A stretch of DNA of 64,000 nt, taken from positions 44,206,001 through 44,270,000 of the forward strand of contig CM114271.1 of NCBI GenBank assembly GCA_050084515.1. The letters run 5' to 3'. The notes below the pieces were generated by a model. The model was not told the origin of the DNA, searched no databases, and saw only the letters and a program-made list of their open reading frames with translations. Position numbers and translations under genes: made by a program. Positions 2,278 to 42,445 of this stretch are shown here, piece by piece. Origin of the DNA: Blasia pusilla. Lineage: Eukaryota. The number at the start of each line of letters is the position of its first letter. Positions within the stretch are counted from its first letter, which is position 1.

Positions 2278-3289
2278 GGGGGCTGGTATTCTGGCAGGAG
2301 AGAGTAAGAGAGGAGAGGAAGAGAGGAAGAGAGGAGAGTCTCTCTTAAAAAAAAAGGGCCAAATCCGCCTCCTCTCTTCAAAACTTTTTGACATATTTGA
2401 AATTTTTGTTTGCTTTCAAATTCAGGAAATCTTTAGAAGAGAGTATTTAGTGGTCCACATTTGGCCCTAAAAAAACCTCCTCTTTCCTGGGGGCGAGAGA
2501 AAAGGAGACATCATAAGACCACTACAAACATTTTTCCATCACTCTCCATGTGAGCCTAAGTTTCTTAACATTCCTTGTCTCGGTCAACAAAAAGCAGTGC
2601 CCTTGGTATTTTTGTTGGAGAACCACCCGGATGCCAACCTCTCTTTTTGCAGGATTGTTTGCATCATGGCCTCCCCTAAATTGCCCCATAACCAACTTTC
2701 TGTTGGTTATGAATGGTGTCTGCTCAAGACCAACTTTGTGAAATGTGAACACATCAGATCCTAAGGCTGAGAAACCGAGAGGCTGCACCCCTCCCAACCC
2801 GTAAGAAAGCTCACCATAAGAAAAGAAAGATTTTTAGAAGTGATTTTCTTCCACCCTGCACCCATGACGATCTAACAAAGTTGGGAATCCGAAATGGCAA
2901 TCCGACGGTGTAGTAGGAATCCGCACATCTTAGACAAGAAAAGAAGCCTACAACTGGTTTGACGAATGTAGGGGAACGAGCCAAAAGTTAAGAAGCTCTT
3001 TCCCTGTGAGAAGTTGGTCTCACAGGGAAAGAGTCCGATCACTCAAGCAGTCAACCTGTCGGATTCCGACAGCTTGCCTGGAAATGGTTAAAAAGTTGCA
3101 GTGGGCAAAAAGTAAAAAGTTGGAACCCGTCGGAATCATACGGGTTGCAGAATTATAATTCTAAGTAGCTAAAAGAACACAATCCACAAGTCCAAAAATA
3201 TTCCAGCAAACTTTTACAAACACCATTATGGGTTGAAAAAATCTCGTCCTTTATTACCTCCGAAGGAACCTCGGAAATGTACATTTGAC

Positions 3290-3610
3290 CTAGTCTATGA
3301 TTTCTTCAGCCTCGTCATCTACAAATTTACTCCTAACTCTCCTCGGTGACAGTACCAAAGGAATGTCCTGGGATACAAGTGGCTCCTCTGGCTGATTGTA
3401 GACGGGGATCGAAAATGTTGGCGAATTCGAGAGCCTTGACCCCTCCCTAGGTACACCATAACGGTCCCATGTAACGTGATTTGAGTCCCACCGCCTTCCT
3501 CGGCAGTATACCTTGTATGCTCTGCAATGTGACACCCATCCAGTATCAATATGTGCTCCGTCCCCGGTAATACCATTATGGCAACCGCACAGGTAGTAGG
3601 AATCCAACAC
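3290..3610 (-). CDS. Possible small third gene or extra exon of the MULE, function unknown
   Basis: 106-aa ORF with a pyrimidine tract and CAG acceptor just upstream (~3613). Homologous sequence lies at 20590-20910 and 32715-33025. No recognisable domain. Confidence 0.35.
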   Translation of the reverse strand: MLDSYYLCGCHNGITGDGAHIDTGWVSHCRAYKVYCRGRRWDSNHVTWDRYGVPREGSRLSNSPTFSIPVYNQPEEPLVSQDIPLVLSPRRVRSKFVDDEAEEIID

Positions 3611-4637
3611 GTCTGAGAGAAGAAAAGAAGCCTACGCCTGCCTTTACGAGTTGAGGGGAAGGTGCCAAGGGAAGAAGCCTGCCAGACTGCATCTTAAGTT
3701 GGACCAACAGGAAAGAGTCCGATCAGGCAACCCTGTCGGAACCGACAGTTGGCCGGAAGTGGTAAAAGGTGCAGTGGTCAAAAAGTGAAAAGTTGCAAGC
3801 AGGAGAAATCCGACGGGTTGCAAAATAGAAGTCCGCGGAGTACATAGATGATCACATTCAAAAAGACAAAAAATGTTCAGCAAACTTTTACAAGCACCAC
3901 CATCGTTCGAAAAAATCTTCTGCTTTATATCATCCGAAAAAGCTCTGAATCAGACATTTGATCTATTCTATGAAATCTTTTGCCTCATCATCAAAAACTC
4001 CCTACTCCAAACTTTGCAAATCAAGCGGGTCGTTGAGTTCTTTGAACTCACTTGTCATCGTCCGAGAGCTCTTGCAAAATTACTTTCGGCCTTGCCCTCC
4101 CGATTTTTGGAATCGTTGGAAGTGACGATGGAGTCACTACCAAGGGTGGGTATGGAACCGGAGCTCTCGGCTTCGGTGGAGAGATGTACGCCCCAACGAG
4201 CCTTTCGTATTCTGCCTTTGCCTCCTTGCAAAGGTCAAACAGTTCCTGCCTTCCCTCGAGGCACAGAATGTTCCTGCCACTCTGCCAGGCGCCTTTGATA
4301 CTTGCCCCTGAAAGTCCCACTAAGTCGAACACCAAGTCACCCGGCCTTGAGCAGAGCTCGATGAGCATTTGCATCAGGGCTGGCGACTTTTCCCTTCCTC
4401 CCAGAAGTGGGGTACTGTCTTGCATGTAAATTCCCGGGGAGGAATTGTACAAACTATCTAAGTTGTACCCATCTGAGCATGGATCCACAGGATCCTGGAT
4501 CTTGAACACCTGGAAATTGTGCTCGGGCCGGACGAAGCAGTACACATAGGAGTGGTCCATCTGTAAATAAGCACATTGGAAACAATGTCAACAACTAAAG
4601 AAGTCGGCTTGAGAACATTTTCAATTCCTAACTTTGG

Positions 4638-4957
4638 ATCAACCTGTCGGAGTCCGACGGGTTGTTTTGTCCCGGACCAACCTGTCGGGCTTTGTTGTTT
4701 TTGTCCGTGAGCAACCCGTCGGAAGGCGACAGTTCTTTGGCCTAGAGCGATCCATGCTGCCGAGAGCAACCGTCGCTATCGACGGGTTGCGCTTTTTTCG
4801 AAACACAGGGAAAAACCAAAAGCAACTGCGACCCGTCGGGTTCCGACGGGTTGCAGGTACACCACGGTTTTCCCTGTGTATGTGGGAAAGATGCAACTTG
4901 TCGGTTTCCGACGGGTTGCTCTAAGCCAGCAACCCGTCGCCTTCTGACGGGTTGCTC
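4638..4957. repeat. Palindrome cluster (GCAACCCGTCGG-n3-CCGACGGGTTGC) in intron 3 of the accessory gene
   Basis: About 7 degenerate copies, e.g. at 4640, 4711, 4766, 4828, 4893 and 4929. Confidence 0.9.
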
Positions 4958-7097
4958 ACGGACAAAAAAAATAGAGATTGACACTCATTATACTCACTCA
5001 ACGGAGATAAACACTCATTATACACATCATTAAAATATAATTGAGATTATAGTACATGAATTGAGCCCTACCCGAATCTCACTCGTCGCGGATCGGAGTG
5101 GGTACTCATTTTTTATGATCCACGATTGCGCCGTCCTCCACTTTAGCGACCTCTTGACGCAGTGGAGGTTGAAGAGCTTATCCTCGCTCCCTCCAGTCAA
5201 CACCAAGAAGCAGCCCCTATCACTCAGATAGGCGTCTGCAAAGGAGAACAATAGCGCAATTTGGTCATAAGAGAGCGCCACATTCCACTCAGGTACCTCG
5301 TCCGACGGATTCTCGCCCCAAAGTCGCAACCCCAAGGGCAGATCAGCGATCAAGAGATCCACCGCAACCTCTTCGACCACTCCATTCACCGTCCAGGCAG
5401 CGTGCCCATTTCGTTGGAGCTTCCGTCCCAGCATTGTCAATTTATTGATGGTCGGTGTCGACGCTTGAGAAGTGAAGCTCTTCAGCTCATCCAGTAAAGG
5501 AGTGAATTGAACGAGGACGCTTGTCCGGGTCGTTGTTTGTCTGTGTCTTCCCAAGGATGTTGGACTGTATTCTCCTTGGGACAACCCTGGCACCTCTCGC
5601 TTCCGCTTCTCCCGAGTCTGCGGACGGCTTGTCGGGGTCTCTATGACCTTAGACTCTGGTGGGGTTTCTTTCGCCGAGGACCTGGTCCGACCCTCTCTCC
5701 CCGCTCGCCCGGACGATTCTGCCTCTAGCCTTGAATCTTCAGCCTCTCTTTGGGAAGACTCGGCCTCTGAATTTTTCCCTCCCCTCGCCTTGCCTTTGAG
5801 ACCCGATGTGGATTTGTCTTTGGCTGTGCGGACCTTGGAAGCCAACTCAGCTGTCTTGTGGGATTGCTCTTCGGCATCTCCTCCGAAGAAGTCTTCAGGC
5901 TGCACGAAATTGGGGATGTCGTCTTGTCCAGAGGCCACTGCATCATGAAGCACTCGTAAATCCTTATCGGTGATGTCTTTAGGGTCGTTGAAGTCGAGCC
6001 AAATGGGGCAATTCTCCACCTCCCAATCGGACATGTGCTGCCCCATCTCCATGTCGTACATGGAGAATGTCTCTGCATCCGCGGCCAAGCCCACAATTTC
6101 AAGGTCGCCGGTAATTTTCCCCACGCACTGCATTCTTACACTTTGGATGAGGTACTTGAAGACCATCGGTTGGGCGCTTTTAGTCGAACAGAATCGGCCG
6201 TCGCTCTCTGTAGATCTCGCTTCTTCTTCGCTTGATCCTGTTTATTCCCTACTTCTTCGTCAAGCTCGCTGAGGGAGGACGCAAACCTTGAACATTGTCT
6301 TGAATCCTGGATTTTTGGTTGGCTTGTCGGATGTCGTCGAGCCAAACCTTGAAATCTCCGAACTTTCAAGGTTTGCTTCATCCGGATGGGCTCTAATCTT
6401 CGAGCTCGCTTGCGGAGGCCATCGCCCAAAGACGGACTTTCGATAACCAACGCGCCCCGTAACGACCATTCGCGTAGCGGTGGGAGATCATCGCTCGGAC
6501 ACACCGGAGGATGGTGTGCCGCCCTCTTTGGGCCTCTGTGCCCTCGAGAGTGATTTTCGTTAGTCGGATCCTCCTAAACTCACTTATGCCGGACAACGCA
6601 AACCGATGCACGCGATCCAGGGACACTTTCTCCCCAATCCGACCATGCGGATCTTCATCCCTTTTCCGCTGGCGCTTGATAATCGCCTTCAGCTCCTTGT
6701 AGAACTCCGGACCAAGTTCAGGGTTGAGAATGCTGATGTATCGCTGCATCTTGCTCGCCCGTGTATTCGTTCTTTGAGATCTGCAGCTTGATGAATTTCG
6801 CTGGCGCAGGCGCAAATACCTTTTCCCTCCGCTCCGGCTCGATTAACGCTCTTCTTCGCGGCCTGTATCTTCGACCAGCAAAGGATGGTTACGGCTGCAT
6901 CTTGGGAAATAAACTTATTTGCCCAAGTTTTCTTTTTTATTTGAGCACCCTTTGCAAGCATCTGATTGACAAGGGCATCGCCCAAGAACCCTCAGCACTC
7001 TCCCGGTGCGTCGTAAAGCACCTTCCTCACCCGATCGCAGATCCCGGATCCGGTGGTGGGTGACATTCCCCTCCGATACAATCTGCACATCCAAACT

Positions 7098-7766
7098 CAA
7101 CCCGTCAGAAATTACATGGGTTCCGCAACCCGTCGGACTCGGACGGTCACGACTCAAGGTCGGATTCTAGAACGAAGCTAAATGATGCAACCCGTCGAGT
7201 CCGACGGATTGCATTCAGATTTGCTAATGCTGGTTTCAACCCGTCGGACCGACGGGTTGTGCAATGAACATACTAACGTGAACATAGCAACCCGTCGAGT
7301 CCGACAGGTTGCGCAATTGTATGGAAACTTGCAATTTGACGCGAAATTTGGGGAACCAACTTCCGAATGCAACCCGTCGGACTGCGACGAGTTGATTTCG
7401 GCCAAAAACAGTTTCGAGTCAAGCAACCTGTCGGACTCCAACGGGTTGCTTTGGGCAAAAAACATACTAAACCTGCGGTCAGTCGAATAACTCGTCGGAG
7501 TCCGACGAGTTGCATTCTTCAAAAAACATCTTGAAAAGGCGGCGAGTCGAGCAACCCGTCGGACTCCGACGGTTTGCTTTGGGCCAAAAACTAATTAAAT
7601 CTGTGGTCAATCGAACAACTCGTTGGAGTTCGACGAGTTGCATTCTTAAAAAAACATCCGAAAAAGCGTCGAGTCGAGCAACCCATCGGAGTCCGACGAG
7701 TTGCTTTCGGCAAAAAAAAACCTAACCCATTCATCAATCGAGCAACTCGTCGGAGTCCGACGAGTG
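7098..7766. repeat. Palindrome array in intron 2 of the accessory gene, 64-bp period with 128-bp higher-order unit
   Basis: About 12 copies. The last six start at 7423, 7487, 7551, 7615, 7678 and 7742, and alternate spacers are homologous. Confidence 0.9.
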
Positions 7767-9297
7767 GCGTAAGTGTTAAAGCATCCCAACAACCGTCCCA
7801 ACCCAGCAAGAAGATACTCACGTGTTCATGGCATGCATTGCCATCTCCACCGTCGCCATGTGATGAGGGAATGGGTGAAGGACCACTGCCTTCACGCAAA
7901 AATGTGCCTCCAATGAGTTGGGCCGCTCCTCCGCAAACTTGGTCCACGCCATGAACCTGTGATTTCCATCCCACATGAAGAAATGCAGGTTCCTCATCCA
8001 GCTGAATTCCGTGCCCTCTACTTGCCTTCTGAAATCCTGGTCTCGCATCCTCCAGAATGTGTCGAGCTTTTCCAAGTCCTCCTCCCTAACCAGAGCTTGG
8101 GTTCCATGCTCGTCGTAAGGCTGAACATAGAAGGGAGGAAAGTTGTCAACGTAGGATGTTGTCGCCGCCGATTTTTTAAGCTTCGCGATGTCCTCGTCGG
8201 ACTGAATTTCGCGGACGTATTCTATTGCCCGCAATCAGCAGAGTGGAATCCTCGGGGTGTTGTGGCCCTCCATGAGTGCCATCTGCTTTACCACCTGTCA
8301 GAACCGGGACAAGATCAATAAGCTACACTGAATTCCCAATGAATTGCAATTCACATAATTCAAAAAACCCAGATCCTCTCTTACCCGCTCAAAAATGGGA
8401 TCGGTTTCTTGACCGGCCAACTTGTCTGAGACAGAAGTTGGCAAATCGACTGGGAACTCGTCGATCCGATAGAGGTCGATGTCCTCCGCCGGGCTTGGAG
8501 ACGAGAATGATCGCTCTCCGGCTTCTTTGGCCATGTCCACCATCTCCACGCTAGCGGTCCTCATGACCTCGTCGTCATCGATTTGAACTTCTGGCGTTTC
8601 CACTATATTGATTGTGTCCCCGGACTTCATGGGGGACATTTCCCGCATCTCAACACTTTCGGTTGGACGGGCAGGGCTATCGTCAATGGCTATCACTTTT
8701 TCCTCCTCGCTTTAGCCAGTCGCTCTCCTCACCGACGCGTCCAGACGCTTCTTTTCTCTCTTTTCGTCGGCGATCCTTTTCTTCAAGGCCTGCGACGTCT
8801 CAGCCTCTTCGTTCTGTTTATCGAGCGCCTCTTGAACACGTCTCGCAAGAAGCACCTGGTTGTGCATCTCCGCTTCCCTTTCCCGCTCCTCGATTTCCTG
8901 CTGCCTAATTTCATTCGCGAACGAGGCCAGGAGATCTTGAGGCAGAGTCCTAATGGACTTTGGAGTGAAGCTCCGGACTTGTTGGCTTGTGATTTTTTCC
9001 TCGTCATTTTTTCCGAAATGCCTCCACCTATGTCCACGATGAATCCCTTGATGATCGCCTTTGCGATGTCGACATGGGTAGCTCGAATCGCCTTGATGGG
9101 TAGCTCGAATCGTCTCGCGATCGTTCAGTCGAACCGTCTCGCTCTCGTTCGGTCGAACCGTCTCGCTCTCGTTCCCTCCTATCGACTCGCGATGTGTCGC
9201 CGTGTGAAACGCCCCTTCGTATCTGATCAGCTGTTGCGCGGGAGAGTGAGGAATGGAGATCGCAAAATGAGAAACCGGAAATGAGCGATTTCTGCCC

Positions 9298-9305
9298 TAT
9301 TTATA
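9298..9305 (-). promoter_or_regulatory. Candidate TATA box (TATAAATA) for the accessory gene
   Basis: TATAAATA on the minus strand ~290 bp upstream of the ATG at 9007. Retained in copy B (~27059). Confidence 0.45.
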
Positions 9306-9404
9306 CTTTTCTAGCCGTTGGGCTGACCGTTGGGCTGACCGTTGGGTCCCATCGTCCGTTCGACGGCGACGTGCCAGAGGTTACGGAAGTCCGGAGGTGA
9401 AAAA

Positions 9405-10022
9405 TGGCAACCCTTCGGAGTCTGACAGGTTGCGCGCCTCCGCCATCCTGGGTACGTCGCCACGTGCACGAGCAACCCGTCGGAGACCGACGGGTTGAGC
9501 GCCTCCGTCGTCTTCGGAAAAGAACGCAAGGTACCCGCGCAACCCGTCGGAGACCGACATGTTGCACGCCTCCACCGTGTTTGGGACGGGAACGGGACGT
9601 ACCCAGGCAATCCGTCGGAGACCGTTGGGTTGCAGACTTCCCTCGTCAAGGGTTAAGAACGCGGGCTTCCCGCGCAAGTCGTCAGAGTCCGACTGGCTGC
9701 ACACTTCATGTAAGCACCACAAGGCGAGGCCCTTGCGCAACCTGTTGGAGGGCGACGGGTTGCACGCCTCGCCGTCTTTGGGCAAATAGGTGAGGCACCC
9801 TCGGAACTTGTCGGGAACAGACGGTTTGCACGCCTCCGGCATCTTCGGGCAAGAAGGAGCGGTATCCGAGCAACTCGTCGGAGAGCGACGGGTTGCTTGC
9901 TTCGACAATGTTTGGCAGAAGCGTGCAACCCGTCCAAAGTCGACGGGTTGCAGGCTTCGGTTAGCTTCTGGTAATTTTTGAGTTAATAGGACTCCGACGG
10001 GTTCCAAGTGTGATTCGCAACC
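9405..10022. repeat. Palindrome array (~65-67 bp period) in the divergent promoter region
   Basis: Copies near 9407, 9472, 9539, 9607, 9672, 9737, 9802, 9870 and 9925, between the two divergent ATGs (9007 and 10248). Confidence 0.88.
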
Positions 10023-10247
10023 CTCTGCTTCCCAAATCCGGTAACACATTGCAAATGTAATTGAATGTGTTCTGGTGATCCATTGTGTCAGACAATGTCA
10101 CCCACCGAATTCATCTTGTCAGTAAAAATCTGTTCAGGAGTATTTGTTTTCCTATTCACTATGAATTAAAAATTCTCATTCTCATTCTCATTCTCATTAT
10201 GATTCTCTTTCTCATTCTCACCCTCCTCCCGTATGAAATTTCTCGGA

Positions 10248-13200
10248 ATGGATAATTATGTTAAGCTCACTTGTGGCAGTCATCTGGCGTCCCTTCCTCA
10301 ATCAGAAATCATTCGACCCCAAGCTAGTGAGTCTTTCATAGCAGTGGATGAAAATTTTCTGTCTTCGATTTCTTCTTCAATTGGAACCATCTTTGTATCC
10401 AAAGATGTTAGGTGGACGATGCACGGAAGACATAATAGGTGAGACGGTCCAGCCAGCGACCTCAGACCGTAAAGTATGGAATCTCCTACCTCTAGCAAAT
10501 GGTCAATATAGAGTTTACGGCCTGCCCCAGAATTCGTATGTTTCCCAAGTAGACGGTCTAGAATTTCCTAGTGCTCCAAGCTCTCGTTTGCAACTCCAAG
10601 CTCTGCAGATCCGGCCGACTCCAACCACACTCGTAACAATGTTGTTCTTCCCTGAAGAGATTCCGGATGTTATCAACCTCGGTGGATATGCTTCGGACAC
10701 CAATCGGGCCCTCTGTCTGCCTACTCGTTCCTCTTGCGAGTATTAGGCAATAGTTTGCTTTCGTCTCTGGCCTTGAAAATGTTCAAGCACATTCTTGTCG
10801 ACGAGCTGCCGCCCACGTACGATGGTAATTGCATTTTTGAGTTGCCTCCACTTGCTGCTCCTGCTCAAAAGAAGGATGGAGGACGCCTGAAGGGTATGGA
10901 CAGAAACTCTGATTGTCATGGATGGTGCAAGCTTCAACGGACTAGTGCTTCCATTCCAGATGGTCCTTGGATTGTCTCCCGCCGCCAATGCGTGGGAGCC
11001 TTGGAGTGTAGAAGTCGAGCATGCCCGTATCTAGAGCGCAACGGGCGAGTCAATACGTTGCAATTCCCTCCCAAGAATGCAGAAACTCCATACGAGGTCG
11101 GTGCCACCATACCGCCGGGAGGCCATCGATGTCCTCATTTTCAAGCATCGCCCTTTTGCGTTGGAGCGTGTCGTGCATACATATTTTTCATTATCCACGA
11201 CTTGGGCTCCACGTCAGAGTATACAAGGCTGGCAGTTCATGTTGGCTCCCACACTCATCCTGTGACCGATGCAATTCAAAGATACATCAAGGAGGATGTG
11301 GCGAAGAAAGTAGCCGAGGTCTACAGAAACTCTCCGGGTTCAAAGCCCGGAGTGATCAAGCTCACAACGATATCACAAATTTGTGAACAATTTCTTGGAC
11401 AGGGCGAGATCACGGTGGTTGAGGAGAAACAACTCTGGGAAAATCTCGCATTTCTCGCTGATCCTGAATGCTTCCGGAATTTGCTGCGTCGAATACGAGT
11501 TCTGGATGGAAAGACGGCCGAAATGGATGCCATCGCCAGAATCAAGGCCAACTCCAGATTTCCATTCATTCAGAGATGGCAGTTCATGGGCCATGGAGGC
11601 GAGGGATCCAGGGCCTATGTCTTCAAAATGTCAACCCCAGTCCGTCGAGTGGCCTCGATCTTATAGATCGAATGAGGGAAGGGAAGATCTTTACTGAGCC
11701 GGGTCGGCTTTGATATTTGCTACTGAGTCTTTGAACGGATGGTTGACGATGGGTGCTCACGTTTATGACCATGTGGAGAAGGGACTCAAAACTATATTTG
11801 TGTGTGAAGTAAAGCGTAAGACGTTGGCGTTTGAAGATGTGTTGGTTACTCTTATTGGAAGTGGTGAAGGAAAACAAAAGGCCACCTCCGGAAATTTATG
11901 GGTTCATCGCGGACAATGCACAACCTGGGTGGATTGCTATCGGGAAGTGTGCAGGGTGGAGAGGTTCAAACGATGAGGAAAGGTCGGATGCTTTCCATTG
12001 GCAATGATCTGTGACCGGTACACCAAATCTTGCATCAAGGAGAATAAGAGGACAGAGCATGTCACTCTACTCCAACGCCAAGGACAAAAAACTTGAAGCG
12101 GGCCATGGACCCGCCAGAAGAACTTCATGGGTGGTGGAGGAAGCATGCGATTGAGGGGAAGTACAAAGAGTTGTGCTCTTGGTTGAGTTGGTGGATCACG
12201 TATGAGACAATGGGGAAACTTCATGCGGCAGGTGAGTTCACTATTTTGTCTTGTCAAGCTCACGCAGAGAATTGTTTGTAAAGTTGTAGCTCAGGGTGAG
12301 AAGCGTGGGAATTATATGGATTTCAAACCCAAGAAACCAAGCAAGCTGTCAGATGCGACGGGTTGCCCGAGTATGCAACTCGACGGAAACCGACGGGTTG
12401 CCCGAGTGTGCAACCCGACGGAAACCGACGGGTTGCCCAAGGGTGCAACCCGACGGAAACCGACGGGTTGCATCCAGATTTTTGGTGCAACCCGAGTGTG
12501 CAACCCGTCGGGACCGGCCAGTCACGAGTCGTTCATGGGATGCCTGCCTTGCAACCCGTCGGGTTCCGGCGGGTTGCGAGGAAGGTGGGTTTAAAGTTAC
12601 AACACGCCGGGACCCGGACGGTCGCAGAGTCGTTTATGGGATGCCTCGGGGCGAACCCGTCTAGTTCCTCTGTGTCGCTTATTTCTTTGACTCCTGAGTT
12701 ATTTTCGTTCCCTTCTAACATTGCCGTCGTTGCAGGGATTGAACTTTCATGAAAATGCCCTCTGCCCCAACACAAGTGGAGCGAAAAGTGTTCATTCCTC
12801 CTGGAGGTTGTCACAAGCATGCCAACGAATTTCACTTGTGGAGGCATGCCAACAAGACCAGGCAAGAGCAATGCTACGATCAAAGCATCCCATATCTTCC
12901 TCACAAAAGGCATAACAAAAGGAAAGGGGCCGTCGATCTACAAGCTCTATGTCAGAGCGGCTGTGAGATCTGGTGATGAAAAATTGTATGTGGAAGCCTT
13001 CAACCGGTGCGTAGCTTGAACTCCACTCGAGCAAGACGTACACATTGGTGGGGATATTCGTGGGCGGGTTTCAAGACGTCCCATACAGATGGTGGTAGAG
13101 CAGTCCGAGCGAGACTCGTGGAGACCAGATAAGTATCTTGACTTGAGTGAAGGTGAAGAGGCAAAGATCGAGGAACAAATCCGGTGATTGATTTGGATGA

Positions 13201-14236
13201 GGAAATTACACCGCCAGTATTCGGGGACCCGGACCCGTCCCAAATCCGTGATGGAGTTACTTCTCCAAAATTAGTGAATGTTTTATTTCAAAAGCCCTCC
13301 GTTGCTGGAAGTTCGCAACATCCTATCACTGGGGTGGTTCAACAATATGGGATTCCGGTAATGGAGGTGGATTGCAACCTAAAACGGTGGCATATATCTC
13401 GGAGCAACCCAGGACGTGGACCCACCTGCAGGGCAGGATCTGATGGCATTAGGAGAGCATGCGACACTTTCCTAAATAAGAACTGTACAAGGACCGGACG
13501 ACCACTGCTTGGGTTTTGGGGACTCAAAACCTTTGATCGTTTCACGAGGACCGGGGATCAATTGAAGTACTTCTTCTGCCCAAATGAATCTTGCGCTTTC
13601 CGGAAGTCTTATCCGGCTGCCATTGGAGCTCTCGGGAATACCCCCTGGATTTGGCCCATCGCCGCAGGTACGAACTGCACTCAAGACGAAGTGGACAATC
13701 TTACAAGTGCCGGTTTCAGACTCGTAGACGGGGGAAGTTCGGAGCATGTTCGCATTACAGAGACCTTCGCATTTCGTATTCAACCCAAGATTGATGTCAA
13801 CATGTACCCGGAGAAGGTGGATGATCTCAATCCATTATTTTTGTTTGAGTCTAGAAATGGGGTGAAGAGAAACAGAATATGCAGGCCAACGGTGGAGAGA
13901 GCAAAGCGAATTACATCAGCTTGGGAGGCAAAAATGGAGATCATCGCCACGAAAGATGTCTTGAGTGGCAATGGAATAGGAAGGATGTATTGGGTCAGGA
14001 ACAACACTGTAAATTCAAGTGTCACAGGGGTGTATGTGGTGCACATCTGTTGCTTTCCCACATGTTCATGTGATGACTTTGTCCAAAGAGAGACAAGTGA
14101 CAAAAGGTATTTCCCTTGTAAGCACATGTACTATGTGTTGCTGGTAGTTTTAAGAGAGTCGGAGGTAGAATTAGGAATCCACCAACCAATTCTGTCCCTC
14201 AAAGAAGTTCGAAGTATTTTAAACAAACCACTTTGA
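10248..14236 (+). pseudogene. MULE-type transposase: N-terminal WRKY/GCM1-like zinc finger, DDE core, C-terminal SWIM finger (2 exons, frameshifted)
   Basis: Zn-finger residues CVGALECRSRACPY...HVGSHTHP. Core motifs pieced together across copies: VGFD, GFMADNAQPGWIAIREV, SDAFHW, WLSWW, PNTSGAESVHSSW (K replaces E in this copy). SWIM: PTCSCDDF...PCKHMYYV. GT..AG intron at 12232-12735. Confidence 0.85.
12352..12662. repeat. Palindrome cluster in the transposase intron
   Basis: GCAACCCGACGGAAACCGACGGGTTGC-type copies at ~35-bp spacing (12375, 12410, 12445) plus looser copies to ~12660. Confidence 0.88.
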
Positions 14237-14643
14237 GGATGCAAAATGAGGTTTTAGATTGTACTTTTAATTTTCCTCAACCTTCACTGTGAGCTTGAAC
14301 TCTATTCAGCCTTGGGCAAATGATAGATTTTTTCCCGACCTTGGATGGAAAAAGTGATTGGTTCCACACTTATGATTCCACTGATTTTTCAGTTTTCTAA
14401 ATTTTGTGCAATTTGCAACTCGTCAGACTCAGAGGGGTTGCCAAAATATGGAAGAGGAAAAAAAAAAAAAACGTGGGGACTGCTTAATATATGAACAAAA
14501 AAGTGCAAAAAAATTCAAACAAAAAGTTTCCTCTCTTCAACCCAACGGAAACTCTCTTAAAAAAAAGTATCTATTTCGGTTGAAGGTAGTTTCCTCTCTC
14601 CTCTCTCCTCTCTTCCTCTCTTCCTCTCCTGTTACCGCACCTC

Positions 14644-16425
14644 GGAGGCCACAACTGCTCGATAGGTTGAAATATAATCATATCCACCTCCTTAACGAGA
14701 CGACCCTCAAGTAGAGTTGTCTGAGGGGTGAGTTCCCCCCCGTTACCTCTTGCTCTCCATCGTAGCAATTCATCCATCTCTTGCTCACGTCTTTCCATGA
14801 TGGATTCATATGCCCTCCTCCACTGCTCAATGTGGTCAACCATGATAGCTCTTTGTCTTTGATGGAGTTCATCTCTGGGAATCAATTCATTCACGATCCT
14901 CTCCATCTCCTTCTTGAGTCTTTCATGCTCATCTGAAAATTGTTGATGCTCCCCATTCAACATGTTGTATTCCGCTTCCAAATCAAAAGAGCATTGGGAA
15001 TTTGTTATCAATCTCTCCAATTGTGATAGACGAGACATAACCTCACTATTATTGGGAGCACTCTCTCGAGGAGTCTCTCCACAATAGCCTGCATTGTAGA
15101 TATGGCCTACATTGTAGTCATTCCTACTATTTGGTCTATCCTCAAGATAGTACACTGCTTCCGCCCGCATCATGACTCGCCCCTTATCTTCACCTCTAGG
15201 GTTTCTTGACGATCCACCTTGCATGTATTGGCCTGGTAGCAATCATGCTCATGAAGGTTCCACTCTTGCTCATTTTGATTGAGGTTGTGGGGTGCAATCC
15301 TCTTCAACTCTTCGCCTCTTGTGTCTTCCTCGAGACCCATTCTCCATATCACCATAATGGACATCGGGGGCTGGTATTCTGGCAGGAGAGAGGAAGAGAG
15401 GAGAGTCTCTCTTAAAAAAAAAGGCACGAAAGGGAAAAAAAACTCAAACTCTCTTCAAAAAATATGAAGATTATGGATAATAAGTGAGTAATTTTTTTGG
15501 AGATTTTTTTTGAAGAGAGGAAACTGAGTGCAACCCGTCGGAATCCGACGGGTTGCAATTTTTTGGTTTTTTTTTTTTTTGGGTTAAGGAAAAATTTTCA
15601 TTTTTAAGGGATTTCTTTAACATTTGCAACCCGTCGGACTCCAACGGGTTGCTTTCTAGGCATCATGGCAACCTGTTGGACTCCGACGGGTTGCAAACGT
15701 TAAAAAAACCCCAAAAAATGAATTTTTTCCTTAACCATAAAAAAAATAAACCAAAAAAAGTTGCAACCCGTCGGATTTCTGATGGGTTGAAAAGGTAAAC
15801 AAAATTAGAAAAAAAAACACAATTTCAAAAAAAAAAATCACCACCAAATTTTTTTGGAAAAAATTTACCTTTTCAACTTGTCAAAACTTTCCTCTCTCCA
15901 ACTTGTCGGAAACTCTCTTCAAACCAAAAGAGCCCTAGGGGTTGCCAATATCTTCCTCTCTCCTCTCTCTCTTCCTCTCTTCCTCTCTCCTCTCTTCCTA
16001 TCTTCCTCTCCTCTTACCGCTCCTCAATGGACATCCATGTCCTTCATTAACTCCGCCACTTTAAGCTTGACAAATACCTTGCTCACTAACTTCTTCTTGT
16101 TGGCAATAAGACTCTCGTAGTTCGAAAGGCCATTGAACAATGCCCAATCCTTTCGCCACTCTTTCTCCTCCACTTTCCTTGCAAATTCTCCATTCGCACG
16201 CTCCGGCCACTTGATGCGCGACTTCTTCAACTCTAGGGAGAGGATTTGTGGGTCAAGGGCGCCATCCAAGTGCGCCTTCAATTCATCATCCGTGACGATC
16301 TCTCCAATTGTCTTCTTGGTTACCTTTGCATGCGTGGGCAGTTTTTCTTCCCCTCTTCCATCACCCTCTTCGTCGTGAGGACTACGGTCTTCATGAGGCG
16401 GCAATGCCATCTTATCTTTTACCAA
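14644..16425 (-). pseudogene. 5' and middle parts of the coiled-coil/RING gene, interrupted by the 660-bp element
   Basis: With the MITE removed, ORF 16024-16425 (...MKDMDVH) continues in frame as YGDMENGSRG... into ORF 14571-15242 through three TGA codons. Confidence 0.65.
15366..16025 (+). mobile_element. Non-autonomous 660-bp derivative (MITE-like) of the same MULE family
   Basis: 10-bp TSD AATGGACATC at 15356-15365 and 16026-16035. Same ends (GGGGGCTGGTATTCTGG / TTACCGCTCCTC). Four internal palindromes near 15530, 15626, 15669 and 15763. No coding remnant seen. Confidence 0.93.
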
Positions 16426-16799: not shown

Positions 16800-18055
16800 T
16801 GTCACATAATTCAGATCCCTTGGGCATAGATTTTAGTGGCTATGCTAAAAGGGAGATTCTTAGGCCCTATTGTGAACGTTGGTGCTATGTGCCAAACATG
16901 ATTTCTTTGTTCATGCTGCCACCATCTATGAGGTGACTCTAAGCACTCATCCTCCTACATAGCATTCCCCCAATCTCCAACCTTGATGTATGGGATAGAG
17001 TTAGCTCCAAAATGGATGAAAATTTTATGCGTATGAAGGTTGGTGTGAAAAACCCCACGCTTGTGGACAGTCTCCATGGTACCAAGAAGGGCAACCACTA
17101 GCTGGACAACATTAGATGCCATCGCAAGACATCTGATCTTTTCCAACTCTCCTGAATTTTCCCCGCCATTCTTCATGGTATGGCATGCTTGCAACCAATT
17201 TTCAAGGTGCCCACCATTCCAATATGGATAGATGCAACTTGGCGGATCCTCGATCAACCTTCCCACCATGCAAAAAAAGCCTTGATGTAAAATAGTCGCA
17301 AACGTATCCTCGCGCATCATCAATTTTCTTGAATATAATCGAGATGATTCCTTAAACACCTTAACAAAATAGTAAATATCTTCACTAAAGGCAAGGGTTT
17401 GGTTTATTTTACATCGGTAGACTATTCCGTGTAAACCTTATCCCACAATATCCTCTGGATCATTTCCTACTACCAAGTTCTTGTAAAAAATCCATGTAAT
17501 CCCACATGGAACTATCAATATCTGACCCACGGTAGTACTACGTCCCTTGAAAAGACATTGAGCATTATTTAACCTTTCAATGACAGTAGTCTCTACAACA
17601 TTCGGTTGCTCATTCTTGAATTCCTTGAGATCGATATACACTCTCTCGAGGTGAACACCTTGTTGGCCACAAAATTTGCTTAACCTATCGGCCTCTTTGA
17701 CATCCACTTCCCACTGAAATTTCTTTGCAAATCTCCTAGCCAATCTTAGCAATTCCAAGGTGTAGTCATGGAAACCATCCATACCCCTCGAAATATAGGA
17801 TCGTCTCTTCTCTAATGTAAGCTGGAAAAACCAATCTAACCAGGCCTTTCTTATAGCCATGTTGAATTCATTCATGGAATTCACTCTTGGCCTCTTGGCA
17901 CTATCGAGTCTATCATCGGTCTCATTTTGGTTATCTCCCACTCTTGAGGACCCAACCCCACTAGACTCTTGGCCTCTTGGCACTATTAAGTCTATCATCG
18001 GTCTCATTTCGGTTATCTCCCACTCTTGAGGACCCAACCCCACTAGACATTTCAC
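16800..18055 (-). pseudogene. Protein kinase pseudogene
   Basis: Reading through the TAA at 17438 gives VG*GLHGIVYRC (Gly-rich loop), FVKVFK, HKRGVFHTNLHTHKIFI and IKVGDWG. An ~82-bp tandem duplication (17883-18047) shifts the frame. Confidence 0.75.
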
Positions 18056-19589
18056 TCGGATGAAGAGGATAAGAAAATCTCCTTAGAAAAAAAAACCAAC
18101 AAAAAATAGTATGAGTTGAGATAAGGAAGTACCAAAAAATAAAATGATATGAGATACTAAGACAGTGGCTCGAGTAATGCTCACACACGTGAATGGAGGA
18201 ATAAGATTTTGGCTTATGTAGGTCACTCAAAAGGAATATATGCGTGTTTAGATAAGTTTCATTGACCACCTCCACATCCCAAATGTGCTCAAGGAGTCAA
18301 TGAAACGAATCTATAACTTGCGTTTGTGAATCGAAAATCTCAAAATCACCAAAAAAGTTTAGTGACACAAGAGATTTCCACACTCACAACCTTGCAGCTA
18401 ATGTGGAGTTAATTGGGGTTTGTTTAGGACACAACAAGGAGGGAAAATATCCAAGTGTGTTACAAAAAAATCCAACAACCCCCAAAAGGCCCGCAACGGA
18501 TTTCTCCAAATTCCACAACGCTTGAAGCCCTTAACTATCAAGGAACCAATGAAATTTGGAGCCTAATCCAAGAAACACTCAAAGAAATGGAAAAAAATGA
18601 GAGAAATCATGATGAGGGATAATTGGGGTTAATTAGCCCAAAACCCCATCCTTATAAGCATTTTTTTGGGCCCATTTGTGGGCCCAAAACTTATGGTTTA
18701 TCCCAAATGAGGAATGGGACACATGCCCAACTTTTTTGCGACACGAGCCTGACCGAGAATAGGCGCGGGATGTCATGCGCACTTGCAGAACAAGGGTGGA
18801 ATGCTCGGAGTGCACGGGCCTGGGTGGGGGCCGCACCCAATGCATGCTCATGGGGCCCGCACCTTGGCCCGTAAGGACATGTCCATCCTCGAGAAGGACA
18901 TATGTCGGCAGATAGGGACAAGTCCGAGGACACAGACTTTGTCCGCTTGCAACCTTGGGGAGGGGGAAGGATTAACTACTTAGGTCTTTCAGTTCCAATA
19001 TCACCACTTGATACATACTTTGTGGGTCATGATTGAGTATGGTGATTTGCTCCAAGGAGAATTCGTGCAACACTATGCTAAGGTCGTGGGGAATTTGAAG
19101 TCATTTAATAGCTACTATTGGAATCCTTGAATCCAAGAGTAGCCGTTTAATGCCTTTGTAGAAAATTTATCTACATTCATAATAAAGTGGAGCAAGAAAT
19201 ATGCATGGGTAGCAAGGATATAATCCTTTGAAATATGGCTAATTGTGGAAGCACAAATAATAAATCCAATCATAGTGACATTGAGCCTTAGACAAGTGGA
19301 TAAGTGTCATGAAAGAAGAGTACGAAATGGTTCTAAGACTTGCAAGCAAATGTGACCTTTATAATTTTGACAGATGTATGTATGGAAGAAGTCTGCTAAC
19401 CTCATAACTATTCATACTACTAAACTGAAATGAAAGCATTCATATGAAAACTTTAAATTACAAACAATTTTGCTTCACATATTGATATATCAGTAAACCC
19501 CCAAGCTAGAGACTCTTATTTGACAATGTCCACCAAATAACATCTTGAAATCGAGTAACATCTAATATCTTGAAAAGTGCCCCAGAAGA

Positions 19590-21734
19590 GGGGGCTGGTA
19601 TTTTGGCAGGAGAGAGTAAGAGAGGAGAGGAAGAGAGGAAGAGAGGAGAGTCCCTCTTAAAAAAAAGGGCCAAATCCGCCTCCTCTCTTCAAAACTTTTT
19701 AACATATTTGAAATTTTCGTTTGCTTTCAAATTCAGGAAATCTTTAGAAGAGAGTAGGTAGTGGTCCACATTTGGCCCTAAAAAAAACCTCCTCTTTCCT
19801 GGGGGCGAGAAAAAAGGAGACATCATAAGACCATCCTAAACATTTTTCCATCACTGTCCATGTGAGCCTAAGTTTCTTAACATTCCCTGTATCGGTCAAC
19901 AAAAAGCAGTGCCCTTGGTATTTTTGTTGGAGGACCACCCGGATGGGTAACTCTCTTTTTGCAGGGATTGTTGCCTGCATCATGGCCTCCCCTAAATTGC
20001 CCCATAACCAACTTTCTGTCGGTTATGAATGGTGTCTGCTCAAGATGAACTTTCTGAAATGTGAAAAAATCAGATCCTCAGGCTCAGAAACCGAGAAGCT
20101 GCACCCCTCCCAACCCGTAAGAAAGCTCACCATAAGATTTTTAGAAGTGATTTTCTTCCACCCTGCACCCACGACGATCTAATGGGTTGGGAATCCGAAA
20201 TGGCAATCCGACAGGTAGTAGGAATCTTGCACATCTTAGACATGAAAAGAAGCCTACAACTGGTTGGACGAATGAAGGGGAACGAGCCAAAAGTCAAGAA
20301 GCCCGCCACAATGCGTCAGAAGTTGGTCTCACCGGGATAGAGTCCCATCACTCAAGCAGTCAACTTGTCCGAATCCGAGAGGTTGCCTGGAAATGGTTAA
20401 AAAGTTGCAGTGGGCAAAAAGCAAAAAGTCGGAATCATACGGGTTGCGAATTGCAAGTACCGAGTAGCTAAAAGAACACAATCCACAAGTCCAAAAACAT
20501 ATTCCAGAAAACTTTTACAAACACCATTATGGGTTGAAAAATCTCGTCCTTTATTACCTCCGAAGGAACCTCGGAAATGTACATTGAACCTAGTCTATGA
20601 TTTCTTGACCTCGTCATCTACAAATTTACTCCTAACTCTCCTCGGTGACATTACCAAAGGAATGTCCTGGGATTCAAGTGGCTCCTCTGGCCGGTTGTAG
20701 ACGGGGATCGAAAATGTTGGCGAATTCGAGAGCCTTGGCCCCCCCCTAGGTACACCATAACGGTCCCATGTAACCTGTCTCGAGTCCCATCGCCTTCCTC
20801 GGCAGTATACCTTGTACGCTCTGCAATGTGACACCCATCCAAAGTATCAATATCCGCTCCGCCCCGGTAATACCACTATGGCAACCGTGACAGGTAAAAG
20901 GAATCCAACACGTCGAGAGAAGAAAAGAAGCCTCGCCGCTTTACGAGTTGAGGGAAGGTGCCAAGGAAGAAGCCCGCCGGATCGCTCGATCCGAAAGGGT
21001 CCGATCAGGCAACCTATCGGAATCAGAAAGGTTGCCTGGAGGTGGTAAAAAGGGTCCAGTGGTCAAAAAGCGAAAAGTTGCAAGGAGGATAAATCCGACG
21101 GGTTGAAGTGGTCATAAAGTGAAAATTGCAAGCAGGAGAAATCCGACGGGTTGAAAAGTAGAAGACCGTGGAGTACATAGACGATCACATTCGAAAAGAC
21201 AAAATGATCAGCAAACATTTACAAGCACCACCATCGATCGAAAAAATCTTCTGCTTTATATCATCCGAAAAAAGCTCGGAACTGTACATTTGATCTATTC
21301 TATGAAATCTTTTGCCAAATTATCAAAAACTCCCTACCCAAACGATGAGTCAATTTGGGTCGTTGAGTTCTTTGAACTCACTCATCATCGTCGAGAGCTC
21401 TTGCAAAATCACTTTCGGCCTTGCCCTCCCGATTTTGGGAATCGTTGGAAGTGACGATGGAGTCACTACCAAGGGTGGCTGGCTGGAACCGAGCTCTCGG
21501 CCGGTGGAGAGTTGTGCGCCCCAACGAGCCTTTCGATTCGCCTTTGCCTCCTTGCAAAGGTCAAACAGTTCCTGCCTTCCCTCGAGGCAGAGAATGTTCA
21601 TGCCACTCTGCCAGGCGCCTCTGATACTCGCCCCTGAAAGGCCCACTAAGTCAAACACCAAGTCACCTGGCCTTGAGTAGAGCTCGATGAGCGTTTGCAT
21701 CAGGGCTGGCGACTTTTCCCTTCCTCCCAGAAGT
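19590..21734 (+). mobile_element. Copy B left arm, same orientation as copy A, ending inside the methyltransferase exon
   Basis: Collinear with 2278-4409. Stops at CCCAGAAGT (21726-21734), abutting an inverted right end. Confidence 0.9.
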
Positions 21735-22137
21735 GAGGTGCGGTAAGAGGAGAGGAAGAGAGGAAGAGAGGAGAGAGGAGAGAGGAAACTAGGGTCAACC
21801 GAAATAGATTTTTTTTTTTGAAGAGAGTTTCCGTTGGGTTGAAGAGAGGAAAATTTTTGTTTGAATTTTTTTGCACTTTTTTGTTCATATGTTAAGCAGT
21901 CCCACAATTTTTTTTTCCTCTTCCATATTTTGGCAACCCCTCTGAGTCCGACAAGTTGCAAATTGCACAAAATTTAGAAAACTGAAAAATCAGTGGAATC
22001 ATAAGTGTGGAACCAATCACTTTTTCCATCCAAGGTCTGGAAAAAATCTGTCATTTGCCCGCGGCTGAATAGAGTTCAAGCTCAAAGTGAAGGTTGAGGA
22101 AAATTAAAAGTACAATCTAAAACCTCATTTTGCATCC

Positions 22138-30300: not shown

Positions 30301-31611
30301 CGAGCGAGGGAGAGAGGGTCGGACGGGTCCCGGCGAAGAAAACGCCACGAGAATCCGAGGTCATCGAAACCCGACAAGCCGTCCCCGGACTAGGGAGAAG
30401 CGGAAGCGAGAGGTGCGGGTTGTCCCAAGGAGAATAGAGCCCATCATCCTTGGGAAGACACAGACAAACAACGACCGGACAAGCGTCCTCCTTGATTCAC
30501 CTCTTTCTTGGATGAGCGAACGCCTTGATTCTCAGCGTCGACAAGCGCCATCGAAAAATTGACAACGCTGGGAAGGAAGCTCCAACGAAACGGGCACACC
30601 GCTGGGCGGTGAATGGAGTGGTGGAAGAGGTTGCGGTGGATCTCTTGATCGCCGATCGCCCTCGGGGTTTGCGACTTTGGGGCGAAAATCCGGCGGACGA
30701 GGTACGAGTGGAATCGCCGCTCACTTATGACCGATTGCACTTTTGTTCTCCTTTGCGCACGCCTATCCGAGTGATGGGGCTGCTTCTTGGTGTTGACTGG
30801 AGGGAGCGAGGACGAGCTCTTCAACCTCCAGTGCGTCAAGAGGTCGCTAAAGTGGAGGACGGCACAATCGTGGATCATCAAAAACGAGTACCCACTCCGA
30901 TCCGCGACGAGTCAAATTTGAGTAAGGCTCAATTCTTGTACAATAATTTCAATTATCTTATAATGATGTGTAGAATCAATCAATCTGGGTTTTTTTTGTC
31001 CGTGAGCAACCCGTCGGAAGGCGACGGGTTGTTGGCTTAGAGCAGCCCATGCTCGGCTGAGAGCAACCCGTCGGTCTCCGACAGGTTGCATCTTTCCCAC
31101 ATACAGAGGGAAAACCGTGGTGTACCTGCAACCCGACGGGTTGCAGTTGATTTTGGTCTTTGGATGCAACCCGTCTAATAGCGACGGGTTGCTATCAGAT
31201 GGGTTGCTCTCAGGCGAGCATGGGCTGGTCTAGGCCAGCAACCCGTCGCCTTCCGACGGGTTGCATCCGAAAACCAAAATCAACTTGGAAAACCCAAAAG
31301 CAACTCCAACCCGTCGGGTTCCGACGGGTTGGTCCGGGACAAAACAACCCGTCGGACTCTGACAGGTTGATCCAAAGTCAGTTATTGAAAATCTTCTCAA
31401 GGCGACTTTTTTAGTTTCTGACATTGTTTCGTGCTGATTTTCAGATGGACCACTCCTACGTGTACTACTTCGTTCGGCCTGAGCACAATTTCCATGTGTT
31501 CAAGATCCAGGATCCTGTGGATCCATGCTCAGATGGGTACAGCTTAGATAGTTTGTACAATTTCCCCCCGGGAATTTACATGCAAGACAGTACCCCATAC
31601 CCACTTCTGGG
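27341..31611 (+). pseudogene. ParB/methyltransferase-like accessory gene, copy B, cut by the inversion
   Basis: Runs from MTRKKTQANKSG (27341) to MDHSYVYYFVRP...MQDSTP. The rest of the last exon lies on the minus strand at ~21380-21734. Confidence 0.8.
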
Positions 31612-42008: not shown

Positions 42009-42445
42009 GGATGCAAAATGAAGTTTAAGATTGTACTTTTATTTTTTTCTCAACCTTCACTGTGAGCTTGAACTCTATTCAGCCCGGGGCAAATGATAGA
42101 TTTTTTCCAGACCTTGGATGGAAAAAGTGATTGGTTCCACACTTATGATTCCACTGATTTCTCAGTTTTGTAAATTTTGTGCAATTTGCAACTCGTCGGA
42201 CTCAAAGGGGTTGCCAAAATGTGGAAGAGGAAAGAAAAACTGTGGGATTGTTTAATAAATGAACAAAAAAGTGCAAAAAAATTCACACAAAAAGTTTCCT
42301 CTCTTCAACCCAACGGAAACTCTCTTCAAAAAAAAGTATCTATTTCGGTTAAAGGTAGTTTCCTCTCTCCTCTCTCCTCTCTCCTCTCTCCTCTCTTCCT
42401 CTCTTCCTCTCCTCTTACCGCACCTCCCCCAGAAGACAAACACAA

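Follow-up and report, generated by a model that had tools for sequence, protein, structure and literature searches.

Can a DNA methyltransferase of bacterial type persist in a plant genome as the cargo of a transposon, and does such a protein still methylate? These questions are raised by a gene on the minus strand of a 64,000-nucleotide stretch of Blasia pusilla contig CM114271.1 (GCA_050084515.1, positions 44,206,001–44,270,000), hereafter called the window, in which all coordinates are counted. Two segments of this strand, 5072–5416 and 4051–4560, encode the two halves of a class-β amino-methyltransferase domain. The initial annotation had described the region as a bacterial-type class-β fold with altered catalytic motifs, split by a spliceosomal intron, and had left it undecided between an enzyme of shifted specificity and a catalytically dead DNA-binding protein. 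The gene lies within a transposon that is present three times in the window. Our preferred reading, to which we assign a probability of about 60% on the basis of sequence comparison, is that it encodes an accessory protein of a bryophyte transposon, built on a captured bacterial or phage class-β domain, and that this protein would work as a module for DNA binding or partnering, with no canonical catalysis.

The methyltransferase-like gene spans approximately 6749 down to 4051 on the minus strand and contains the following parts.

4048–4560, minus strand: last exon (exon 2), 170 codons plus stop
4300–4326, minus strand: motif I position, DLVGLSGAS, aligned to DPFxGSGTT of RsrI, DpnA, and CcrM
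4561–5071, minus strand: predicted spliceosomal intron of 511 nt with GT..AG borders, in phase 0 and largely taken up by palindrome arrays
5072–6241, minus strand: large exon open reading frame (ORF), a charged low-complexity linker followed by the N-terminal, catalytic-side domain half (5072–5416)
5333–5344, minus strand: motif IV position, D-L-P-L followed by G-L, aligned to DPPY of CcrM
6396–6749, minus strand: tentative N-terminal region with an ATG at 6749, not in the reading frame of the large exon here (copy 1 of the transposon)

The upstream frame (ORF 5030–6241) contains ...VDLLIADLPLG..., as read directly, and its terminal residues ...VDLLIADLPLGLRLWGENPSDEVPEWN...SEIR are followed by GTAGGG. 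The downstream ORF (4048–4587) contains ...PGDLVFDLVGLSGAS..., which includes motif I; its frame opens with MDHSYVYCFVRP... just past ...TTATTTACAG, continues via ...GGREKSPALMQMLIELCSRPGDLVFDLVGLSGASIKGAWQSGRNILCLEG..., and ends at the stop codon 4048–4050. The donor (CGG/GTAGGG, past 5072) and the acceptor (...TTATTTACAG/ATG, ahead of 4560) both fall on codon boundaries, and thus excision of 4561–5071 fuses the two frames in phase 0. The predicted intron has GT..AG borders and a pyrimidine-rich 3′ end, and its removal restores a product that is collinear with the Ceratodon proteins P0009 and P0010 and with CcrM. The last exon contributes the post-intron strand, a short target-recognition region, a helix with REKS, motif I, the β2 Glu, and a C-terminal ...LSDDDK tail. 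Toward the other end, the tentative region 6396–6749 and the N-terminus of P0009 show collinear but weak matches (E 0.26 and 1.3), below significance.

Named relatives of full length come from the moss Ceratodon purpureus alone: three hypothetical proteins (758–803 amino acids), with locus tags on chromosomes 9, 1, and 6 and a mutual identity of 89–92%. Their residues 465–564 align to exon 1 of the window gene, ahead of the intron (31%, E 5e-8), and residues 615–676 to exon 2 (42%, E 8e-11). The two matches are collinear, their spacing is the one predicted by the splice model, and a C-terminal ...LSDD tail is common to the window gene and the Ceratodon proteins. A metagenome scan added seven moss-like contigs (L001–L007), which carry the same gene with AT-rich introns, and one bacterial CcrM-type contig (L008). 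The window gene shares approximately 30–42% identity with the Ceratodon and metagenome members. Word-based protein searches gave no match for exon 1 (near lengths) or exon 2 (longer lengths), and no relative was found among viral contigs scanned with the C half of the family.

The intron is older than the window copy. At the homologous codon, three metagenome loci (L005, L004, and L001) have an intron that is likewise phase 0 and GT..AG (114, 119, and ~98 nt, respectively), with the frame break four codons ahead of a conserved strand, ...VR(P/S). Since this position is common to members with only ~30–40% protein identity, the intron predates the split of these lineages. The age of the intron, from which the initial annotation had deduced a long residence in eukaryotes, is thereby upheld by the shared position and phase and by the collinearity of the spliced product with the Ceratodon proteins. 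The large size of the window intron is due to palindrome arrays inserted later. A second, phase-1 intron lies inside motif I (...TG/G-[AS]S...) in L001–L006 and is absent from the window gene.

Splicing of 5072 to 4560 is supported by this comparison, RNA speaking neither for nor against it. Three RNA runs of the same species label were aligned at 90% likeness (274–422 reads), and no 5072/4560 joint reached the listing threshold in any of them, the depth at the borders being ~1–4. Coverage climbs to ~8 in the 3′ part of exon 2 and drops across 4561–5071, which fits removal of the intron without demonstrating it.

Homology to bacterial and phage enzymes was evaluated by profile comparison. Exon 2 matches the Pfam family PF01555 at positions 165–220 of 221, i.e., the last quarter of the model only (E 1.2e-4, 22.5 bits; cut-off 26.7). 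It also matches DNA methyltransferases of phages in PHROGs (E 7.3e-6, 1e-5, and 2.5e-4) and M.RsrI in the PDB (E 0.011), and a scan of NCBIfam gave weak matches only. An exhaustive phmmer search of exon 2 against 1.84 billion representative proteins (E up to 1e-3) returned eight matches: one low-complexity artefact, five eukaryote-like relatives, and two bacterial fragments that are clear members of PF01555 (Pfam E 4e-19 and 4e-17). The N half alone has no match in Pfam, PHROGs, or NCBIfam.

The relationship of both halves emerged when whole profiles were compared. The family profile consisted of seven rows (the spliced window gene, three spliced metagenome relatives, and the domain parts of the three Ceratodon proteins), and the comparison set comprised 78 full-length CcrM-type ORFs from 80 bacterial loci. 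With hhalign, the spliced family could be aligned to CcrM over 240 columns with a local probability of 97.6% (E 4.4e-12) and a global one of 98.5% (E 1.5e-14). Cut at the intron, the N half alone matches the DPPY...NPMPNF segment of CcrM (probability 90.8%, E 1.2e-6), compared with E values of 0.03–0.84 for 20 column shuffles and 0.4 for the reversed half; the C half alone matches the motif X–I region (E 1.9e-8). The hidden Markov model (HMM) of the family matches 78 of 78 CcrM ORFs (best E 2.8e-11), and that of CcrM matches the window's own spliced protein with an E value of 6.1e-6 (a single comparison). Since the catalytic-side half comes first and the half on the side of S-adenosylmethionine (AdoMet) last, the domain is class β by definition (passages of PMC7544214). 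Collectively, the hhalign results for each half and the PHROG, PDB, and Pfam matches agree with the class-β order that had been proposed and with homology to bacterial or phage enzymes of PF01555.

Two weaker lines of evidence point in the same direction. With language-model features of the Ceratodon domain, 20 of the 30 nearest protein-atlas clusters carry PF01555 (score 0.94); these clusters comprise bacterial and phage proteins of 215–236 residues. A low-confidence AlphaFold2 model of Ceratodon P0009, folded with an alignment containing some misplaced fragment heads, has a mean predicted local distance difference test (pLDDT) score of 44 and values of 55–83 in the N half of the domain; its order of strands and helices fits. 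All Foldseek matches listed for this model at E up to 1e-3 are class-β enzymes (M1.HpyAVI, E 1.1e-5; CcrM, 9.6e-5), followed by M.BceJIV, TTHA0409, N4CMT (8s9o, 2.5e-3), and M.PvuII (7e-3), and then by METTL3-14. Taken alone, this model would leave the seven-strand fold only putative; the outcome that would have refuted the initial annotation, a fold other than a Rossmann-like methyltransferase, was not obtained. Small class-β enzymes (M1.HpyAVI/DpnA, CcrM, and M.RsrI) are the best PDB matches both by sequence and by fold. They share with the window family the order of motif IV, a short recognition region, motif X, and motif I, as well as the strand-helix pattern. Aligned blocks common to both are hydrophobic-D-hydrophobic-AD, L-x-D-G-hydrophobic, W...N-x-P, x-E/Q-K-x...PGD-hydrophobic-D, and R-x-hydrophobic-E.

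Yet, the catalytic motifs are distinctly altered. Motif IV is D-x-P-x-G-L in all ten sequences compared (DLPL, DLPS, and DRPR in the three window copies, DAPE in three Ceratodon proteins, and DIPE in four metagenome members), in contrast to the canonical (D/N/S)PP(Y/F/W). The D, P, G, and L are invariant in the aligned family members, whereas E, L, S, or R takes the place of the stacking aromatic, with a different residue in each of the window copies. Motif I is D-[LWC]-x-x-x-[TSC]-G-[AS]-S across the family; the Phe of FxGxG is found in 0 of 17 sequences, and GxG in two (L001 and P0005). The usual HPTQKP is replaced by G-x-REKS. The altered motifs reported earlier are thus present at the positions given above, and the other two copies vary the theme (DLPS and DRPR). 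It is the final motif IV residue that stacks against the target base, and the Phe in motif I that contacts the adenine of AdoMet; an eroded motif IV marks the non-catalytic METTL14 (EPPL) and MTA9 (NALW) (passages of PMC7544214). Owing to the loss of the stacking aromatic and the second Pro in motif IV, together with that of the Phe in motif I, canonical methylation of a flipped adenine or cytosine by this protein is unlikely. In ancestry and architecture the domain belongs to PF01555, but two defining motifs of that family fail, and it was filed as a degenerate derivative and not as a methyltransferase.

What is retained is equally specific. The Asp of motif IV is invariant, and the Glu that ends strand β2 is at least 90% conserved, with Lys in one decayed metagenome copy. 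In M1.HpyAVI, the substitutions D29A and E216A each abolish AdoMet binding (passages of PMC5173035). Since both of these AdoMet-essential residues are kept, the protein may still bind AdoMet. The ratios of nonsynonymous to synonymous substitution rates (dN/dS) between window copies, based on 24–35 substitutions per comparison, are 0.28 and 0.38 (exon 2) or 0.25 and 0.20 (N half), with dS 0.11–0.27; the corresponding divergence is 0.23 (uncorrected) in the intron and 0.14 in the 3′ untranslated region (UTR). In our judgment, purifying selection has maintained the protein in the active lineage of the element.

The element itself is a unit of ~12.4 kb, which self-BLAST reveals three times in the window at 87–92% identity. 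Because the gene lies inside this thrice-present element, it is a gene of the transposon and not of the host. The element carries three transcription units, and the boundaries of the first copy and of the other two are as follows.

2269–2277: 9-bp target-site duplication, left copy, GGAGGCCAC, perfect direct repeat
2278–14643, plus strand: transposon copy 1, 12,366 bp, with GA-rich imperfect terminal inverted repeats
14644–14652: 9-bp target-site duplication, right copy, GGAGGCCAC, perfect direct repeat
19590–42426, plus strand: composite made up of copies 2 and 3, with CCCAGAAGA on either side (19581–19589 and 42428–42436)

The inverted ends of copy 1 contain a 28-nt perfect core inside a 43-nt match. 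Mutator-like elements have target-site duplications of 9–11 bp and a MURA-type DDE transposase, which often bears a SWIM finger. The 9-bp duplication, the inverted ends, and a sub-threshold match to a SWIM zinc finger (see below) suggest that the element is Mutator-like. A transposon as the vehicle of such methyltransferases, which had been raised as a possibility, is in this case directly visible: the gene is enclosed by inverted ends and a 9-bp target duplication.

In the composite, the segment 21735–31596 (~10 kb, the equivalent of 4413–14643) is inverted. The two breakpoints share one 9-bp exon 2 site, whose occurrences are inverted relative to each other (CCCAGAAGT and ACTTCTGGG). The composite looks like the product of an aberrant or intramolecular transposition into the element itself. 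The parts of the methyltransferase-like gene in copies 2 and 3 are damaged.

21392–21739, minus strand: copy 2 exon 2, 3′ part, severed by the inversion from the 5′ part at 31445–31612 (plus strand)
30516–30918, plus strand: domain N half in copy 2 (inverted), motif IV DRPR, disrupted by frameshifts and stop codons
33446–33955, minus strand: copy 3 exon 2, 93% protein identity to copy 1, one in-frame stop, acceptor ACG instead of CAG
34497–34813, minus strand: domain N half in copy 3, motif IV DLPS, disrupted by frameshifts

In copy 1, both domain exons are intact, and the N-terminal region is out of frame with respect to copy 2. Upstream of the domain, copies 1 and 2 (5400–7100 versus 28900–30620) are 86% identical, with 32 indels of 1–3 nt in 1.7 kb; this indel density could reflect either decay or errors of long-read assembly in repeats. 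The three window copies look dead, i.e., they are probably decayed relics rather than working genes.

Transcripts of the family were nonetheless recovered. The RNA reads are mostly 90–95% identical to the window and therefore derive from other copies. Their strand is the expected one, with a minus-strand gene over 3000–8900 and a plus-strand gene over 10300–14400, and reads of the other copies stop matching exactly at 2278, the left end of the element. Within the 3′ portion of the methyltransferase-like unit, reads skip 475 nt at 3563–4039 with non-canonical ends (10–23 reads per run). The skipped region is part of an internal duplication (2894–3319 versus 3578–3992, 74% identity), so that one repeat unit of the 3′ UTR is probably missing from the copies that are expressed.

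Two further genes accompany the methyltransferase-like gene in the element.

7821–8234, minus strand: conserved exon (WDGNHRF) of a separate upstream gene, with an RNA joint 7082/7821 and a stop at 6915
10656–14236, plus strand: divergent gene, candidate transposase, with a SWIM-like zinc finger at the C-terminus and RNA on the plus strand

The exon at 7821–8234 contains ...FYVQPYDEHGTQAL...WDGNHRFMAWTKF... and has a copy at 35813–36304. Although strongly conserved, it matches nothing in Pfam, PHROGs, NCBIfam, or the PDB; the model of its fold is unusable (pLDDT 42). The WDGNHRF stretch presumably resembles the DGxHR motif of ParB/Srx proteins, a likeness that was unsupported and was dropped. 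A captured ParB-methylase module was accordingly rejected: no Pfam, PHROG, NCBIfam, or PDB family matches the exon, and the RNA joint suggests a separate gene. The candidate transposase has a Cys/His-rich N-terminal part, its SWIM matches (E 0.023 and 0.16) are below the cut-off, and its RNA has a GT..AG joint 12227>12732, which defines an intron at 12228–12731. A second, non-canonical skip from 12341 to 13557 was also seen in this RNA.

A further feature of the element is a set of palindrome arrays.

4640–4954: palindrome array within the intron, CAACCCGTCGG, 3-nt spacer, CCGACGGGTTG
7098–7753, 9408–10004, 12355–12576, and 15531–15774: further palindrome arrays, 64–68-nt tandem units

The two arms and the spacer form a perfect palindrome of 25 nt. 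The arm motif has 128 matches, versus 0.68 expected, and all of them lie in or beside element copies: the clusters fall within 3052–15774 and in the other copies, the one at 15531–15774 being just outside copy 1. Within the element, arrays occupy introns in each of the two minus-strand genes, the intron of the plus-strand gene, and the intergenic stretch that separates the divergent genes. Among 88 fetched loci of other lineages, of which only seven are family loci, and short ones, none contains the palindrome motif, and no comparable hairpins were seen in L001, L002, and L005. Given that these short contigs of the family lacked it, a link between the palindromes and the methyltransferase-like protein is conjecture.

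Several known systems resemble the window family in part. The small class-β enzymes described above differ from it in their canonical motifs, since motif IV is D-x-P-x-G here and motif I lacks the Phe and usually the first Gly. They also differ in architecture: the window family is a eukaryotic protein of 750–800 amino acids whose N-terminal region is helical and which also has a charged linker and an acidic tail, and its gene has introns and is carried by a transposon. To our knowledge, enzymes of PF01555 are very rare in eukaryotes. The precedents named in the initial annotation, N4CMT of rotifers and MpDN4MT1 of Marchantia, do exist as stated and likewise have a bacterial-type class-β domain in an intron-interrupted eukaryotic gene (passages of PMC8885841 and of bioRxiv 10.1101/2021.02.12.428880). 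However, they are host genes that have been shown to make N4-methylcytosine, while the window gene is transposon cargo with an eroded motif; MpDN4MT1 was compared by its description only, and the N4CMT structure (8s9o, E 2.5e-3) is one of many class-β fold matches. METTL14 and MTA9 keep a class-β fold despite an eroded motif IV, as is predicted for the window family, and have a structural or substrate-binding role beside an active partner (passages of PMC7544214). Unlike the window family, they are host genes of the MT-A70 clade.

Mobile elements with methyltransferase domains, some of them inactive, are already known among retrotransposons. DIRS1 elements have a methyltransferase domain, and all copies were judged inactive because of substitutions (passages of PMC4738411), and retrotransposons of dinoflagellates and charophytes carry DNMTs (abstract of PMC5890265). 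These domains are of the M.TaqI/PCIF1 or C5 type and reside in retrotransposons, whereas the window element is a cut-and-paste DNA transposon with a PF01555 domain in a separate gene. A PF01555-type gene on a cut-and-paste transposon of land plants was found neither in full-text literature searches nor in passages of the 2015 survey of eukaryotic adenine methyltransferases, the supporting information of which may bear on the point. The layout of the element recalls that of VANDAL, a Mutator-like element of Arabidopsis, which has accessory genes for anti-silencing VANC proteins beside the transposase and a short element-specific motif in tandem in accessory introns and upstream of the transposase (passages of PMC5735166). 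The palindrome arrays of the window are laid out alike. The likeness is one of layout, and no sequence relation was seen; the motif here is a 25-nt palindrome, and its binding by a protein is conjecture. The window element adds an accessory gene with a predicted methyltransferase fold, which VANC, as far as we know, does not have.

How, then, would the protein act? According to the preferred reading, the C-terminal domain of the accessory gene would descend from a small bacterial or phage class-β (PF01555, N6_N4) DNA amino-methyltransferase, would still fold as a seven-strand methyltransferase, perhaps still holding AdoMet, and would serve the transposon through DNA binding or as a partner subunit, a role proposed from the analogous METTL14, MTA9, and inactive DIRS1 domain. 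Several results weigh against this account. The linkage of gene and transposon is shown in this window only, and not in Ceratodon or the metagenome contigs; no DDE or Mutator-like element (MULE) domain was found in any ORF scanned of the element, and protein-atlas features were uninformative, so the transposase is only a candidate. All five family members that match PF01555 miss the Pfam gathering score of 26.7 (the best relative reaches 26.5 bits), and a sixth member scanned, P0007, has no Pfam match. A search of the PDB with the N-half HMM found no methyltransferase, the top hit being ribosomal protein uS2 (E 0.021). The P0009 model is poor, and its Foldseek superpositions have template modeling scores of 0.36–0.41 and root-mean-square deviations of 11–13 Å. 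The substitution counts behind the dN/dS values belong to the same list. Finally, the conserved Asp, third-position Pro, Gly-Leu, and β2 Glu would fit a working enzyme with an unusual active site as well. Such an enzyme, namely a DNA (or RNA) amino-methyltransferase acting through a motif IV of non-canonical form (D-x-P-E/L) together with a motif I variant and marking, for the transposon, the element's own DNA (e.g., the CG-rich palindrome arrays) or that of the host, is unlikely but deserves weight. It would account for the conservation of the two residues that M1.HpyAVI requires for AdoMet, for the invariant D, P, G, and L around motif IV, for the GxG kept in the lineages of L001 and P0005, and for dN/dS values of 0.20–0.38. 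However, the stacking aromatic is missing in 10 of 10 sequences, at a position that varies among E, L, S, and R, the Phe contacting the adenine of AdoMet is missing in 17 of 17, and an eroded motif IV is the mark of METTL14 and MTA9, which do not catalyze (PMC7544214).

The same low dN/dS, well under 1, speaks against a captured gene fragment that drifts in the transposon in the manner of Pack-MULEs, leaving residual frames without function for element or host. The domain exons of copies 2 and 3, broken by stops and frameshifts, the mutated acceptor of copy 3, the out-of-frame N-terminal region of copy 1 with its 32 small indels per 1.7 kb relative to copy 2, and the lack of a full-length relative in word-based searches are what such drift would produce. 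But full-length ORFs of 758–803 amino acids are annotated in Ceratodon, the family is transcribed, and domain, intron position, and C-terminal tail are conserved across lineages at only 30–42% identity, which renders this explanation improbable. A domesticated host gene that happens to lie in repeated DNA, like MpDN4MT1 or N4CMT, has in its favor that the Ceratodon copies are annotated as ordinary hypothetical proteins; it is nevertheless very improbable, given that the gene is enclosed by the inverted ends and target duplication of an element present three times and rearranged, that the RNA comes mainly from other copies with 5–10% divergence, and that the catalytic motif is non-canonical. 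As to what an accessory module of the preferred kind might be for, a doubtful but definite proposal by analogy is a counter-defence factor. The protein might be either a VANC-like binder that shields the element's CG-rich 25-nt palindromes from silencing by the host or a decoy that dimerizes with a DN4MT1-type methyltransferase of the host and diverts or blocks the host enzyme.

The characterized eukaryotic cases of PF01555, N4CMT and DN4MT1, each revealed a new epigenetic mark. The window family would represent a third, separate eukaryotic lineage of this fold, with an old intron, carried by a cut-and-paste transposon, and with a catalytic signature that is systematically eroded while the sequence remains under selection. 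It offers a concrete route for the spread of bacterial-type methyltransferases in plant genomes and a candidate for a transposon-encoded regulator of DNA modification.

A few neighboring features were noted around the element copies. The ORFs of the host at 52–62 kb matched no Pfam family. On the minus strand, an ORF at 1688–2344 with a RING-finger match below the cut-off (E 7.4e-5) extends just across the left end of copy 1, and RNA covers 2057–2970 on both strands around this end. The 5-kb spacer between copies 1 and 2 contains a minus-strand pair of ORFs at 16955–18082 with a protein-kinase match (PF07714, E 1.5e-6). Just past the composite, a plus-strand fragment at 43887–44375 matches PIF1-like helicases (Pfam E 6e-9) and may be the remnant of a Helitron.

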